Source of the DNA: Gammaproteobacteria bacterium
GTDB lineage: Bacteria > Pseudomonadota > Gammaproteobacteria > JAJPIJ01
Direction of reading: 5' to 3'
Length of the DNA: 64,000 nucleotides
Assembly: GCA_041395385.1 (NCBI GenBank)
Contig: JAWLAN010000006.1
Location: forward strand, 398,548-462,547
Numbering within the stretch: position 1 is the stretch's first letter; each line of letters begins with the position of its first letter. Below are positions 2,674 through 12,649 of the stretch, in pieces. A program made the position numbers and the translations under genes. Below the pieces are notes generated by a model. That model saw only the letters and a program-made list of their open reading frames with translations, had not been told where the DNA came from and made no database searches.

Positions 2674-4350
2674 GTGCCCAGGATGTTGGATACTGAGTTT
2701 TGCCGGCAGATTCTCAAACTGCCGGAACCATGGGTGGTCGAGGACGTGCGCGTGGACAAGCCATCCAACCGCATCGACGTCCGGATCGGCTTGCCCCGAC
2801 ACAAGCGCTCCCTCTTCAGCCGCCCAGCGACCTGTCCGCGCTGCCATCGCGCCCTGCCCGAGACGGGCGCTGGTCACCGTGTCGTCAGGCACCTGAACAT
2901 CGGTGAGATGCGCACCTACCTCACCGTGCCGGCCACGCCCGCGGAGGGCGGCGCGAACGACTGCGGATGTCGACGCGCGTGGAGCAATCCCGGATCGCGC
3001 TTCACCCAGGAGATGGAACGCCAGGTCGTCGAGGGCCTGCATCTGCTGGGTTCGATCGACGCCGTCGCCAAGCTGTTCCTGGTCAACGCCGCCGACGTCC
3101 GCGAGATCAACGGGCAGCACCGCATCATCGATTTCGACAAGCCCGCACCCGCACCCACCCACGCCGTCGCCTACGCCCAGGCGCATTTCAATGACGGCGG
3201 GCTGGAGGTCGCCTACATCGACGAGGAGGACTACGGCACCGCGCCCGCGGCGCCGCCACCCGCGCCTCCGAAGGAAAATCAGGAGGCCGTGCCGCCGGAG
3301 TCCGATCCAGTCTGGCAGCGTCTCATCGATCATTCCGCGCACGCGAGCCTGCAGTCGTTGGGGCTGAAGATGCTGCTCGAGCAGATCCGGCTCAGCGTCA
3401 CCGGCAATGCCTCCGAGACCTCGCGCCTGGCGGCCGCCCGCATCCTGCGGCAGTACTTCGTCAAGCACTGGCGCCGCAGCCAGACGGAACTCGCGTCGCT
3501 GCTGAGCGAGACGCGCGCGCAGCCGGGTACGCAGCCGGCCCAGGCGCCGGCAAGACCGCTCATCGAGCCGCCGCCGGAGACCGACCCGGGCTGGCAGTAC
3601 CTCATCGAGGGACGCATACCCGTCCACGCCGAGGCCATCGGGCTGAAGATGCTGATCGAGCGCCTGCGCCTGACGCTGGGCTCGCGTCCCTCCGCCGAGA
3701 GCCGCATCGCCGGCGCCCGCATCCTGCGCGAATACTTCGTCAAGCACCGCACCCGCCATCAGGCCGAGCTGGCACAAGTCGTCGCCGCCGGCAAGGCTCA
3801 CACGCAGCGCACGGCGGCCCCGGCGCACCCGCAGACGACCGCGGTCGTCGAAGTGCCGCCCGAGACCGCGCGCTGCTGGCAGCTGCTGATCGACGGTCAG
3901 CTGGAGATCCAGAGCTCGGCCGTGGGTCTGACCATGCTGCTCGAGCGCATCCGGCTGACGATCGGTCGCGTTCCCTCCCCGGCCGCGCGCATCGCGGCGG
4001 CGCGGGTGCTGCGCCAGTATTTCGAGAAGTACCGCAGCCGCCACGAGGCGGAGCTCAAGCTGCTGGTCGCCGAGGATGCGCTCTACCATCCGGACAGCAG
4101 CGGCCAGGTGGTGGAGTTCGTCGAAGTGCCGCCGGAGAACCACCCGAGCTGGGACAAGCTGATACGCGGCGAGCTGCAGATCCGCACCGAGGCGCTGGGC
4201 CTGAAAATGCTGCTGGAACGGGTGCGCCTGTCGCTGGGTTCCGAACCCACGGAGGCGCTGCGTCTGGCCGCGGCGCGCGTTCTGCGGCAGTACTTCATCA
4301 AGCATCGCAGCCGCCACCGCGCCGAGCTCGAGCAGCTCAAGGCAGCCTAG
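2674..4350 (+). CDS. ISL3-transposase N-terminal (zf-ISL3 + HTH) domain protein fused to four tandem ~80-aa helical repeats; no DDE catalytic domain
   Basis: N-terminus LKLPEPWVVEDVRVD...CPRCHRALPETGAGHRVVRHLNIGEMRTYLTV...DCGCRRAW followed by an HTH-like segment (FTQEMERQVVEGLHLLGSIDAVAKLFLVNAADVREI) mirrors ISL3 transposase DNA-binding architecture. Then four repeats with core W.xLI.G.L.I...A.GLKMLLE.IRL.LG..PS...R.AAAR.LRQYF.KHR.RH.AEL. First gene of the Che-like operon. Confidence 0.7.
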   Translation: MPRMLDTEFCRQILKLPEPWVVEDVRVDKPSNRIDVRIGLPRHKRSLFSRPATCPRCHRALPETGAGHRVVRHLNIGEMRTYLTVPATPAEGGANDCGCRRAWSNPGSRFTQEMERQVVEGLHLLGSIDAVAKLFLVNAADVREINGQHRIIDFDKPAPAPTHAVAYAQAHFNDGGLEVAYIDEEDYGTAPAAPPPAPPKENQEAVPPESDPVWQRLIDHSAHASLQSLGLKMLLEQIRLSVTGNASETSRLAAARILRQYFVKHWRRSQTELASLLSETRAQPGTQPAQAPARPLIEPPPETDPGWQYLIEGRIPVHAEAIGLKMLIERLRLTLGSRPSAESRIAGARILREYFVKHRTRHQAELAQVVAAGKAHTQRTAAPAHPQTTAVVEVPPETARCWQLLIDGQLEIQSSAVGLTMLLERIRLTIGRVPSPAARIAAARVLRQYFEKYRSRHEAELKLLVAEDALYHPDSSGQVVEFVEVPPENHPSWDKLIRGELQIRTEALGLKMLLERVRLSLGSEPTEALRLAAARVLRQYFIKHRSRHRAELEQLKAA

Positions 4351-4363
4351 GGAAGGAGGCCTC

Positions 4364-5401
4364 ATGTTCGGGATCACGAGCCCGCAGCCCGCGAACACAC
4401 CCCTCACCAGCGTCAGCGGCCGCCTGGTCACGATCGCCGAGGCCGCGGCCGCGATTCGTCAGGGACGGGCACTCTGGATCGGCGGCGACGAGACGCTGCT
4501 GCGGCAGCTTCCCACCGGCCACTGGATAGGCGGATCGATCCCCTACTTCGTGGCGCAGAATGGCGGGGAGACGACGCGCGAGCGCGTGTTCTGCTCGGAG
4601 TTGCCGCCCAATATCGCCACGGGCATCGACATACGCTTCTACGATCTGGACACCATCAGCCGTATTGCCGTGGAGGCGCCCGAGAACGGTTTCACCATCC
4701 TGCTGATTCCGGCTACCAGCGAGCTGCATCTGAGCTACGCTCAGAATGCGCCCGGCTACGAGGAGATGTTCCTGAAGCCGATCGCGGGCTGGGTCACGGG
4801 CGTCCATCTCGACGACCTCGGCCGGTCGCACCCGGTCGTGTACAACGGCAAGACCGGCGAGGCCTCGCGCGAGCGCGGTCTGGTCATGCACGTCGCGCTG
4901 CGTCCGGAGAAGATCGCCCAGATCGGCATCGTGAATACCTTCCGGCAGGGCAACGGCGACACCCTGGTCTTCAATGAGACCGGCTTTACCGCCCACCGCT
5001 GCGAGGTCAACGGGGTGGAGCGCAATTTCGCCGAGTACGTGCGCGAACAGAAGATCGACCAGCGCCTGCCGCTGGTGGCGGACTACTCGGGCACGATGAT
5101 CAACGTCGGACTGCAGCGCGTCGACGAGCGCGGCGACGAGGTGTCGTTCTACGCGCCGGTCTTCAAGGGCATCCGCTACCGGTTTGCCGCGCCGGTCGAG
5201 AACTACGTCGAGGCGTTCCAGTCTGCGATACCGAAGCTGGATCAACCGGTGGTGTTCAGCTGCAATTGCGTCCTGAACTACCTGTACTCGGAACTGGAAG
5301 GCAAGCACACTGCGCACATGACCGGCCCGATGACCTTCGGCGAGATCGCCTACCAGCTCCTGAACCAGACCATGGTCTACCTGACCGTCGAGGATGCCTG
5401 A
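4364..5401 (+). CDS. hypothetical protein (possible FIST-like sensory domain; unverified)
   Basis: 345-aa ORF tightly spaced (13 nt) after the previous gene and followed directly by the response-regulator gene; no motif recognised with certainty. Confidence 0.55.
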   Translation: MFGITSPQPANTPLTSVSGRLVTIAEAAAAIRQGRALWIGGDETLLRQLPTGHWIGGSIPYFVAQNGGETTRERVFCSELPPNIATGIDIRFYDLDTISRIAVEAPENGFTILLIPATSELHLSYAQNAPGYEEMFLKPIAGWVTGVHLDDLGRSHPVVYNGKTGEASRERGLVMHVALRPEKIAQIGIVNTFRQGNGDTLVFNETGFTAHRCEVNGVERNFAEYVREQKIDQRLPLVADYSGTMINVGLQRVDERGDEVSFYAPVFKGIRYRFAAPVENYVEAFQSAIPKLDQPVVFSCNCVLNYLYSELEGKHTAHMTGPMTFGEIAYQLLNQTMVYLTVEDA

Positions 5402-11229: not shown

Positions 11230-11314
11230 CCCGCGGGTGTCGCCAGCCTTGTTTATCTGGCGTCTCATTCCGCAGATAATCTGCGGGTAGCTTCAGCTCA
11301 AGAAGGCGCCTGCT

Positions 11315-12649
11315 TTGCTCAAGGTTCTGGTCATTGACGACTCGCGCGTCGTGCGCAAGATGATGGTGGAGTCACTGCGCACGGAGTTCGCGGGCGCCGC
11401 GGTCGACGAGTACGACCCGTGCATCCAGGGATTCCCGGGCTCGGAATTCGGATGGTCGTATTACGACATCGTGTTCCTCGATTACAACCTCGGGCTGGCC
11501 GGCGAGGACGGCCTCACCTGGCTGCGCAAGTTCCAGAATTTCGCCGATATGCCACCGGTCATCATGCTGACCGAGGAGGAGCGCATCAGCGTCATCGTCA
11601 AGGCGATCAAGGCCGGCGCCAAGGACTACGTGCTGAAACGCGATCTCAAGAACGCGGATCTGGCCAACATCATCTACCGCGCGCTCGGGATCGAGGGCGA
11701 CGAGGCCGAGGCCAACACGCTCAACGAGATCCCGGCCCTGGAGGTGCCCACCGCGGCCACGGAGCGGACCCAGGGGCACGGCGAGAACGCCCCGGTCACG
11801 CAGCGGCACGAATCACTCGTGTCGCGCCGCAACGGCGCGCCGCAGGACACCATACGCGTACACATCCCCGGCTACCGCATCATCGCCCCGATCGCGCAAG
11901 GCGGCATGACCACGATCTTCCTCGCCCAGAGGGTCGAGGACGACCTGGAGATCGTCCTGAAGCTGATGTTCACGCGCGACCAGCCCGACACGCCGCTGTT
12001 GCGCTATTTCATGCAGGAATACGCGCTCATCTCCAAGCTCAACCACCCCTACATCATCAAGATCTTCGAGCGTGCGTTCGCGAAGGACTTTGCCTATATC
12101 GCCATGGAGTACCTGCCCGCGGGGAACCTGGTGGCGCGCATCCGCAAGGGCCTGATGCCGGACAAGGCGCTGCAGTACATACGCCAGATCGCCGAGGCGC
12201 TGGGAGCGGTTCACAACCTGAGCATCGTACACCGGGACCTTAAGCCGTCGAACATCCTGTTCCGCCAGAACGACACCGTGGCGATCACGGACTTCGGCGT
12301 GGCGCATTTCGCCGCCGGCATGAGTGGCATCGACGAGACGCAGGTTCTGATCGGCAGCCCCTCCTACATGAGCCCGGAGCAGTGCAAGCGCCGCCCCGTG
12401 GACCCGCGCAGCGATCTGTACAGCCTCGGGGTGGTGATGTTCGAGATGCTGACGGGGGGCAAACCGTACACGGGGCGCAGCATTCCGGAGATCATCGATG
12501 CCCACATCCGCGCCCCGGTACCTCGCCTCCCCGACGAACTGCGGCAGTATCAGGCGCTCATAGACGGCCTGCTGGCGAAGGACCCGGCCGAACGATTCCA
12601 GAGCGCGGGCGAGTTCATCGCCGGCCTGGAATGGATCTGCCAGGGCTGA
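11315..12649 (+). CDS. response-regulator receiver domain fused to Hanks-type Ser/Thr protein kinase
   Basis: N-terminal REC (VLVIDDSRVV...IVFLDYNLG...IMLT...VLKRD) followed by a kinase domain with HRDLKPSNIL catalytic loop, DFG and SPE motifs; terminal gene of the Che-like operon. Confidence 0.9.
   Translation: MLKVLVIDDSRVVRKMMVESLRTEFAGAAVDEYDPCIQGFPGSEFGWSYYDIVFLDYNLGLAGEDGLTWLRKFQNFADMPPVIMLTEEERISVIVKAIKAGAKDYVLKRDLKNADLANIIYRALGIEGDEAEANTLNEIPALEVPTAATERTQGHGENAPVTQRHESLVSRRNGAPQDTIRVHIPGYRIIAPIAQGGMTTIFLAQRVEDDLEIVLKLMFTRDQPDTPLLRYFMQEYALISKLNHPYIIKIFERAFAKDFAYIAMEYLPAGNLVARIRKGLMPDKALQYIRQIAEALGAVHNLSIVHRDLKPSNILFRQNDTVAITDFGVAHFAAGMSGIDETQVLIGSPSYMSPEQCKRRPVDPRSDLYSLGVVMFEMLTGGKPYTGRSIPEIIDAHIRAPVPRLPDELRQYQALIDGLLAKDPAERFQSAGEFIAGLEWICQG

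Follow-up and report, generated by a model that had tools for sequence, protein, structure and literature searches.

A conserved chemosensory-type operon without CheR or CheB, encoding a receiver-Hanks kinase downstream of cheA, in Gammaproteobacteria

Chemosensory arrays are the most elaborate of bacterial signalling machines, and their known outputs comprise motor-binding CheY proteins, cyclic di-GMP cyclases, transcription factors and the control of cyclic AMP. Among described systems, Pil-Chp of Pseudomonas aeruginosa, which belongs to the type IV pili (Tfp) class, Flm of Comamonas testosteroni, and Wsp, of the alternative cellular function (ACF) class, are the closest to the locus presented here. 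This locus is a cluster of seven genes, G1 to G7, on the forward strand of a 64,000-nucleotide stretch of the gammaproteobacterial contig JAWLAN010000006.1 (the whole stretch is called the window below). In order, the genes encode a repeat protein (G1), a protein of the Pfam family DUF6976 (G2), a response regulator (G3), a CheW-like coupling protein (G4), a methyl-accepting chemotaxis protein (MCP; G5), a CheA with a C-terminal receiver (G6) and a receiver fused to a Hanks-type Ser/Thr kinase (REC-STK; G7); coordinates are collected in Table 1. We read the cluster as a methylation-independent phosphorelay of chemosensory type in which CheA would serve both a PilG-like regulator and the REC-STK, with G1 and G2 as an accessory cassette. 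Based on sequence comparison, we give this reading a probability of roughly 0.55.

The resemblance to Pil-Chp lies in gene order and domain composition. In both, one or more regulators precede CheW, an MCP and a multi-Hpt CheA that has a C-terminal receiver and no P2 domain, and a receiver-enzyme gene directly follows cheA; homologs of the module proteins have also been named PilG, PilH and ChpA by automated pipelines (JGI, NCBI). Unlike Pil-Chp, the module has neither PilK nor ChpB, and the REC-STK occupies the place of ChpB. Its MCP lacks a periplasmic domain and methylation sites, its regulator has an extra N-terminal domain, genes for a FIST-like protein and a repeat protein are added, and neither its CheA nor its CheW core is nearer to canonical ChpA or PilI than to the E. 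coli protein. Flm is a Tfp-class system without CheB or CheR, with a dedicated receptor devoid of methylation sites, and serves a non-motility trait (PMC6391922). It shares with our locus the absence of methylation enzymes from the chemosensory cluster and of methylation sites from the receptor; however, the outputs of Flm are two single-domain CheY-like regulators, and it has no kinase, DUF6976 or repeat protein. In Wsp, an MCP, CheW and a CheA-receiver hybrid feed a receiver-enzyme fusion (WspR, REC-GGDEF) that converts the currency of the signal, an arrangement to which the module is alike, but Wsp possesses CheR (WspC) and CheB (WspF) and its output is cyclic di-GMP synthesis rather than protein phosphorylation. 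Finally, CheB and ChpB are, like G7, receivers fused to a protein-modifying enzyme and encoded beside cheA, whereas the catalytic domain of G7 is that of a Hanks kinase.

The first-pass annotation of the window had proposed seven co-directional, tightly spaced genes forming one operon. Their existence and positions are supported by the pattern of G+C at third codon positions (0.83-0.90 for each gene, in a window of ~68% GC), by their Pfam domains and by synteny in relatives. The intergenic gaps from G1 to G7 are 13, 2, 99, 63, 69 (or 30) and 85 nt, and the starts of G1, G3 and G6 used here are those of the gene calls on an identical contig of a metagenome-assembled genome (MAG; GCA_964464715.1). 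A search of the cluster for intrinsic terminators on the + strand found none, and a promoter scan of the region upstream of G1 returned no sigma-70 or sigma-54 consensus, a result that is uninformative about transcription. In base composition, the cluster does not stand out from the window. An MCP, a CheW and a CheA with an Hpt and an intact P3-P4-P5 core are co-encoded, as is characteristic of Che-type systems, and on these features we regard the cluster as a real seven-gene chemotaxis-like signalling unit and a single predicted operon.

The search for this gene order in other genomes, suggested with the first-pass annotation, showed that it recurs. A DUF6976 profile was used to scan one genome per species (~185,000 species genomes), which gave 184 loci; 80 were kept, and the module proteins were mapped onto these with phmmer. 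Genes of che type follow DUF6976 in 26 of the 80, all from gammaproteobacterial MAGs apart from the cultured Methylohalomonas lacus, so that the module is rare (26 of the ~185,000 species genomes). The same order is found, with unrelated flanks, in further metagenome contigs. In four relatives whose contexts were compared, with kinases 60, 46, 45 and 41% identical to G7, the flanks are again unrelated and the order is G1-like protein, DUF6976, regulator with N-terminal domain, CheY (121-135 aa), CheW, MCP (~465 aa), CheA (1109-1379 aa, with several Hpt and a receiver) and REC-STK; overall, the order is conserved across kinases of 42-96% identity. The kinase gene comes immediately after cheA in all 18 loci that extend this far, the other 8 of the 26 ending earlier at a contig or locus end. 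In three loci (L091, L009 and L008), the cheA and kinase genes either share 4-23 nt or are separated by 8 nt. The genes therefore behave as one conserved unit, as had been proposed, and because the same order recurs between different flanks the arrangement is far beyond chance.

Compared with its relatives, the window lineage (which includes L010-L012) lacks the PilH-like CheY gene seen between G3 and cheW in other module loci, and its CheA is ~190-450 aa shorter (924 aa, against 1109-1379 aa) with fewer Hpt domains than the CheA proteins of L007-L009. Judged by this comparison, the window lineage carries the module in reduced form, the PilH-like cheY having been lost.

The recurrence of the module bears on the possibility that unrelated genes are juxtaposed by chance, or that the kinase marks an anti-phage island. 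The kinase domain does match the PADLOC models PD-T4-6 and mad6, and the NCBIfam model MADS6 below its cut-off. These matches, however, span the generic kinase domain only, G1, G2 and G3 match no defence model, and synteny across many species with different flanks, together with the native composition of the cluster, is hard to reconcile with either origin. We have rejected the defence reading, and consider this whole explanation extremely improbable.

The domain label given to G7 in the first pass is upheld. Pfam detects Response_reg and Pkinase (E=3e-45), the kinase motifs VLK, HRDLKPSN, DFG and SPE are present in G7 and conserved in its relatives, and the receiver has its DD pair, acceptor Asp (FLDYNL), Thr and Lys. 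Across the module, the K, HRD, DFG and APE motifs are kept in all kinases and the receiver Asp in most. G7 thus looks catalytically competent, with a receiver that looks phosphorylatable. More than 100 full-length REC-STK homologs (37-96% identity) were found, almost all from uncultured Gammaproteobacteria; a plasmid collection yielded generic kinases only, and nothing closely related to the REC-STK. The claim that the REC-STK is the terminal output of the pathway fared less well. The kinase appears competent for such a role and is a candidate for it, but a PilG-like regulator, in most relatives accompanied by a PilH-like one, is co-encoded.

Relatives of the REC-STK outside the module were seen in several settings. 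Two gammaproteobacterial contigs (L093, 1544-21509, and L094, 66-21485) have two REC-STK genes each. One of these follows a cheW-MCP-cheR-cheD-cheB cluster and a gene of 185-187 aa without a Pfam hit, the cluster in L094 additionally having cheY, cheA, parA-like and STAS genes; the other follows an MCP gene, a CheA-receiver gene and two small genes, which in L093 are preceded by REC and CheW genes. In L092 (8676-11621) and L096 (8856-11251), a gene for a receiver-guanylate/adenylate cyclase overlaps the start of the REC-STK gene; in L092, a stand-alone Hpt gene comes next, and the pair is 1.7 kb from a canonical pilG-pilH-pilI-pilJ-chpA locus. The neighbourhood of a cyclase is thus a further setting in which this kinase family recurs. 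L095 has a REC-STK gene alone. The association of REC-STKs with che clusters is, on present sequences, recurrent and not exclusive.

As had been noted in the first pass, the operon contains no CheR or CheB. A separate cheR-cheV pair lies ~8 kb away on the opposite strand, where it abuts flgA-flgM-flgN-ycgR. The same holds for the family, since neither CheR nor CheB is encoded within 10 kb in any module locus. The receptor agrees with this. The MCP had been described as almost lacking a periplasmic domain, and hydropathy indeed places two transmembrane helices (residues ~12-32 and 45-66) joined by a loop of ~12 residues; because the helices are so close, G5 is predicted to have no periplasmic sensor. 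Its C-terminal arm, ~151 residues after the hairpin, is compatible with a 40H or 44H receptor. The methylation consensus [ASTG][ASTG]xx[EQ][EQ]xx[ASTG][ASTG] has no match in G5 and is found in none of ~20 distinct module MCPs. Applied to controls, the same pattern recovered all four known sites of E. coli Tar and likewise four in an MCP encoded in a cheR/cheB cluster. Judged from these loci, the absence of CheR and CheB characterizes the family, and its MCPs correspondingly lack the methylation consensus.

A system without methylation might use its kinase for adaptation. The REC-STK could be a feedback enzyme that replaces CheB or ChpB, is activated by CheA as CheB is, and phosphorylates the receptor, CheW or CheA on Ser/Thr instead of demethylating, with the PilG-like regulator as the output. 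In the P. aeruginosa pil-chp cluster, chpB directly follows the cheA gene, which is the position of the kinase gene here; CheR, CheB and methylation sites on the MCPs are lacking, and the PilG-like regulator is conserved in the module. When the receiver of G7 was compared with a small panel, its own family set aside, the highest scores went to CheB receivers (47 and 44 bits), just ahead of CheY (43 bits) and followed by PilG/PilH (28-31 bits). That margin is small and the panel tiny, however, and related REC-STKs follow clusters that already hold CheR, CheD and CheB. We consider a feedback role of this kind distinctly unlikely.

The CheA-receiver hybrid predicted for G6 was confirmed, with Pfam Hpt, HATPase_c, CheW and Response_reg domains; there is no P2 domain. 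Structures of T. maritima CheA match its P3-P4-P5 core at 1e-52; the PDB search gave generic CheA matches only, which carry no information on class. Several Hpt domains combined with a C-terminal receiver typify the CheA proteins of the ACF and Tfp classes (PMC10782961). The P3-P5 cores of the module CheAs, together with those of the minus-strand clusters in L093 and L094, which have no G1 or G2, form one group (34-55% identity) that is 27-33% identical alike to canonical ChpA, E. coli CheA and CheA of the CheR/CheB type. For the window, core identity is 30.8% with canonical ChpA and 26.9% with E. coli CheA; neither reference is favoured by the remaining members of the module. CheW proteins of the module obtain better scores with E. 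coli CheW than with PilI. Compared with Tar and CheY, respectively, the PilJ-like receptor and the PilG of the canonical pil-chp locus in L092 are nearer to the MCP and to the G3 receiver. Since the clusters without G1 and G2 fall within the CheA group, the kinase appears to travel with this CheA lineage, and G1 and G2 to have been added later.

With respect to class, the module has the multi-Hpt CheA with C-terminal receiver and no P2 that marks Tfp systems, a feature shared by ACF. PilH, PilK and ChpB are missing from the window, and its PilG-like protein has an extra domain. Strict Tfp membership was rejected, and the module is not filed there, because its CheA and CheW cores are not nearer to ChpA/PilI than to the E. 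coli proteins. The combination of CheA-receiver hybrid and receiver-enzyme fits the architecture of the Wsp-like ACF class, except that, unlike Wsp, the module has neither CheR nor CheB. Taken jointly with the whole reading given at the outset, and with that same likelihood, CheA would represent a distinct lineage of ACF/Tfp-like architecture dedicated to an alternative cellular function and not to flagellar control.

G3 had been called a dual-receiver regulator, and this is not supported. Pfam finds one Response_reg domain, at the C-terminus, for which the PDB sequence search gave generic CheY matches only. The conserved N-terminal domain gave no receiver signal in Pfam or in a PDB profile search, and hhalign against a receiver profile returned a probability of 0.7%. 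In its AlphaFold2 (AF2) model this domain has five strands and three helices, a topology that would allow a flavodoxin-like fold without singling it out. DrdR of Xanthomonas campestris, the product of an orphan gene, has a degenerate REC1 followed by REC2 and binds PilB/PilT (PMC13507683). Compared by description, G3 and DrdR (~280 aa) are both two-domain regulators that end in a canonical receiver and lack a classical output domain. They differ in that the N-terminal domain of G3 has no detectable receiver homology, and in that G3 lies inside a che operon. A tandem-receiver, DrdR-like identity for G3 is not supported, no second receiver fold being detected in the N-terminal domain.

These affinities raise the possibility that the real outputs are the PilG-like or single-domain regulators, acting for example on type IV pili or another motor, and that the REC-STK is a minor side branch or a phosphate sink. 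The order of two regulators, CheW, MCP and CheA mirrors pilG-H-I-J-chpA, the automated homolog names point the same way, and there are precedents in Flm, which has no CheB or CheR and signals through a single-domain regulator, and in the PilB/PilT-binding regulator of Xanthomonas. On the other hand, the position of the kinase gene is as conserved as those of the che genes, the gene is translationally coupled to cheA in relatives and its catalytic residues are under selection. The window lineage kept the kinase and lost the PilH-like gene. The CheA and CheW cores, as seen above, are not nearer to ChpA and PilI, and none of the genes annotated in the window was identified as a pilus gene. We therefore find regulators as sole outputs improbable, and retain the reading in which CheA would serve regulator and kinase alike.

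G1 had been recognized as a transposase-derived repeat protein, and this stands. Its N-terminal part matches Pfam Zn_ribbon_ISL3 above the gathering score (28.8 bits, E=1.6e-6), and a weak match to HTH_Tnp_ISL3 occurs in the homolog from Methylohalomonas. The NCBIfam model for ISL3 transposases is matched at positions 9-107 only, so that G1 has no DDE domain. G1 is accordingly classed, from these matches, as a domesticated transposase fragment and not as an ISL3 transposase. The N-terminal domain is conserved in 63 homologs, its cysteines mostly not. The four repeats that follow have the consensus PPExDPxWQxLIxG...GLKMLLERxRL...AAARxLRQYFxKHRxRHxAEL, and in every G1-like protein mapped, the last repeat stops no more than ~15 residues from the C-terminus, directly upstream of DUF6976.

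G2, by comparison, is more than the unknown protein it had been called: it belongs to Pfam DUF6976 (E=5e-140). This family has 4324 homologs at E<=1e-5; the 120 matches listed are 53-97% identical and none of them bears a functional name, and no paper on the family was found in the full-text literature open to searching. An AF2 model of G2 (pLDDT 86) has as its best PDB matches the FIST-domain protein FBXO22 (probability 0.85-0.96, TM-score 0.35-0.41), in agreement with a weak Pfam match to FIST_C (E=0.0036, below gathering). DUF6976 thus models as a FIST-like fold, the fold match being modest. It resembles bacterial FIST sensors and human FBXO22 in these two respects; it differs from them in being a separate Pfam family, with a TM-score of ~0.4, in having no fusion to signalling outputs and in its constant pairing with the 72-aa repeat.

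In the mapped loci, repeat and DUF6976 are always adjacent, with DUF6976 after the repeat. The repeat HMM finds 1 repeat per upstream protein in Betaproteobacteria, 2 in Desulfobulbales and 3-5 in Che-linked loci, and in Chloroflexi one repeat is fused to the N-terminus of DUF6976. Because of this copy-number pattern, the constant adjacency and the fusion, repeat and DUF6976 are very probably physical partners, and G1 a multivalent form of the partner. In one MAG locus (L024, 8114-11320), a G1 with five repeats and DUF6976 have after them only a kinase-like ORF fragment of 76 aa, as if the che genes had been deleted and a remnant of the kinase left behind.

The pair also exists by itself. A stand-alone G1-like gene and DUF6976 with variable neighbours make up ~45 of the 80 loci, from Methyloversatilis, Dechloromonas, Methylibium, Hydrogenophaga, Derxia, Desulfogranum and Bacteroidota (autonomous or fused cassettes are found in L039-L077, for example L040 8897-10993 and L062 9278-10972, and in L078, L079 and L086). 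It could be, then, that G1 and G2 stand outside the signalling pathway, as a self-contained pair of a domesticated transposase DNA-binding domain and a FIST-like sensor that shares a promoter with the che and kinase genes or regulates them. The likeness of the G1 N-terminus to the DNA-binding end of ISL3 transposases, and the STK-linked che clusters of L093 and L094 that do without the pair, would fit this view. Against it, the number of repeats rises from 1-2 to 3-5 in the Che-linked lineage, and an 'NPSE' loop is conserved in Che-linked repeats and absent from stand-alone ones, which suggests adaptation to new partners. The gaps of 13 and 2 nt also tie G1, G2 and G3 together. We judge an independent pair unlikely. 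The 'NPSE' loop itself is a lead for a candidate phosphorylation site, nothing more.

From the domains, the conserved order, the intact catalytic and acceptor residues, the absence of CheR, CheB and methylation sites, and the linkage of repeat and DUF6976, we infer the following scheme for the phosphorelay preferred here. A sensor-less membrane MCP, with two transmembrane helices and a HAMP domain, would control the CheA-receiver kinase together with CheW. CheA would autophosphorylate on an Hpt histidine, and the phosphoryl group would pass from Hpt to three receivers, namely its own C-terminal one, that of G3 and that of G7 (and to PilH in relatives). Once phosphorylated, the receiver of G7 would switch the Hanks kinase, by which a His-Asp signal would become Ser/Thr phosphorylation of substrates. 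G1 and G2 would be an accessory cassette recruited by the lineage, with G1 a scaffold in which each 72-aa repeat docks one DUF6976 protein. The cassette would most likely supply or condition a cytoplasmic input; that it is a target of the kinase is less likely.

Several observations weigh against this scheme. In L034, L035 and L037, the gene directly after cheA encodes a kinase without a receiver, so the coupling cannot rest solely on phosphotransfer to the receiver of the kinase, and in a few others (L022, L026) the receiver looks degenerate. The operon encodes no PP2C phosphatase, FHA protein or other recognizable kinase substrate, and no conserved gene follows it. Related REC-STKs are also found after a cheR-cheD-cheB cluster, beside a receiver-cyclase or alone, and the family is for this reason not exclusive to the module. 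Finally, the autonomous occurrence of G1 and G2 with variable neighbours means that they could be a transcription factor-like cassette.

A bolder version would make this a chemosensory class of its own, with Ser/Thr phosphorylation in the place of methylation. The CheA-activated kinase at the chpB position would then phosphorylate the array or the G1 scaffold, with the 'NPSE' loop as candidate site, while G1 would gather several FIST-like DUF6976 sensors at a receptor lacking any ligand-binding domain. If true, a single operon would bring together a novel input module and a novel chemistry of adaptation or output. We regard this version as speculative and rather improbable.

Table 1. Features of the chemosensory-type cluster and of neighbouring genes in the window
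Feature	Position (nt)	Strand	Description	Basis
Presumed promoter region	2067..2682		Intergenic, ~600 nt, upstream of G1	
G1	2683..4350	+	555 aa; ~150-aa N-terminal part like ISL3 transposase N-terminus, then four ~72-aa repeats	
G1 repeat 1	3286..3507	+	aa 202-275	Repeat HMM, E ~1e-41
G1 repeat 2	3565..3786	+	aa 295-368	Repeat HMM
G1 repeat 3	3850..4071	+	aa 390-463	Repeat HMM
G1 repeat 4	4123..4344	+	aa 481-554; ends just before stop codon	Repeat HMM
G2	4364..5401	+	DUF6976 protein, 345 aa; predicted FIST-like two-lobed alpha/beta fold	
G3	5404..6339	+	Response regulator, 311 aa	One Pfam Response_reg, C-terminal
G3 N-terminal domain	5464-5793	+	Conserved alpha/beta domain, ~110 aa (aa 21-130)	
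G3 receiver	5986-6315	+	C-terminal, after disordered linker	
G4	6439..6927	+	CheW-like coupling protein, 162 aa	Pfam CheW E=4e-16
G5	6991..8385	+	MCP, 464 aa	Pfam HAMP (7186-7317), MCPsignal (7777-8238)
G6	8455..11229	+	CheA-receiver hybrid, 924 aa; ORF open from 8416	Pfam
G6 Hpt	8950-9204	+	Best of two stretches	Pfam
G6 HATPase	9934-10347	+		Pfam
G6 CheW-like (P5)	10462-10761	+		Pfam
G6 receiver	10834-11136	+	C-terminal	Pfam
G7	11315..12649	+	REC-STK, 444 aa	
G7 receiver	11324-11641	+		
G7 kinase	11876-12601	+	Hanks-type Ser/Thr kinase	
MATCAP-family gene	13281-14687	+		
GGDEF gene	14703-16415	-	Membrane protein	
cheR	20576-21442	-		
cheV	21526-22476	-		
ycgR-like gene	24258-25037		PilZN-PilZ flagellar brake	
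Low-GC block	25166-31500		50-58% GC	
tRNA	25166-25238	+		Rfam
Integrase gene	25256-26365	-	Tyrosine integrase	
Rep_trans gene	26547-27692	-	Replication initiator	
STAND-like gene	28196-29536	-	AAA ATPase	
PAS-GGDEF-EAL gene	37979-40213	-		

The cluster is flanked upstream, at ~600 nt, by divergent DUF493-lipB-lipA genes and downstream, at 22 nt, by a convergent carbonic anhydrase gene. A gene for a MATCAP-family protein is located near the operon, and likewise downstream of the module in L007. Other signalling genes nearby encode a membrane GGDEF protein and a PAS-GGDEF-EAL protein, and a gene for a YcgR-like flagellar brake directly follows flgN at the edge of the flagellar cluster. A block of low GC within the ~68% GC window starts right after a tRNA gene and contains genes for a tyrosine integrase, a Rep_trans replication initiator and a STAND-like AAA ATPase; it is probably a mobile element integrated at the tRNA. 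An rRNA operon as the origin of this block was rejected, Rfam giving only the tRNA.

The suggestion that this architecture is at most sparsely characterized agrees with the literature: no paper describing the arrangement was found in searchable full text, although an earlier mention in a census in a subscription journal is possible. Each of the ingredients has a precedent, in Flm, WspR and DrdR; what appears to be new is the combination of a dedicated CheA lineage with a REC-Hanks kinase and a FIST-like/repeat scaffold. The locus provides a first context for DUF6976, a family of more than 4000 homologs, and a partner for it in the 72-aa repeat. Methylohalomonas lacus, as a cultured carrier, makes the predictions accessible to experiment. 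If the preferred reading is true, protein Ser/Thr phosphorylation would join the outputs of chemosensory systems, and the module would constitute a genetically defined junction between His-Asp and Ser/Thr signalling.

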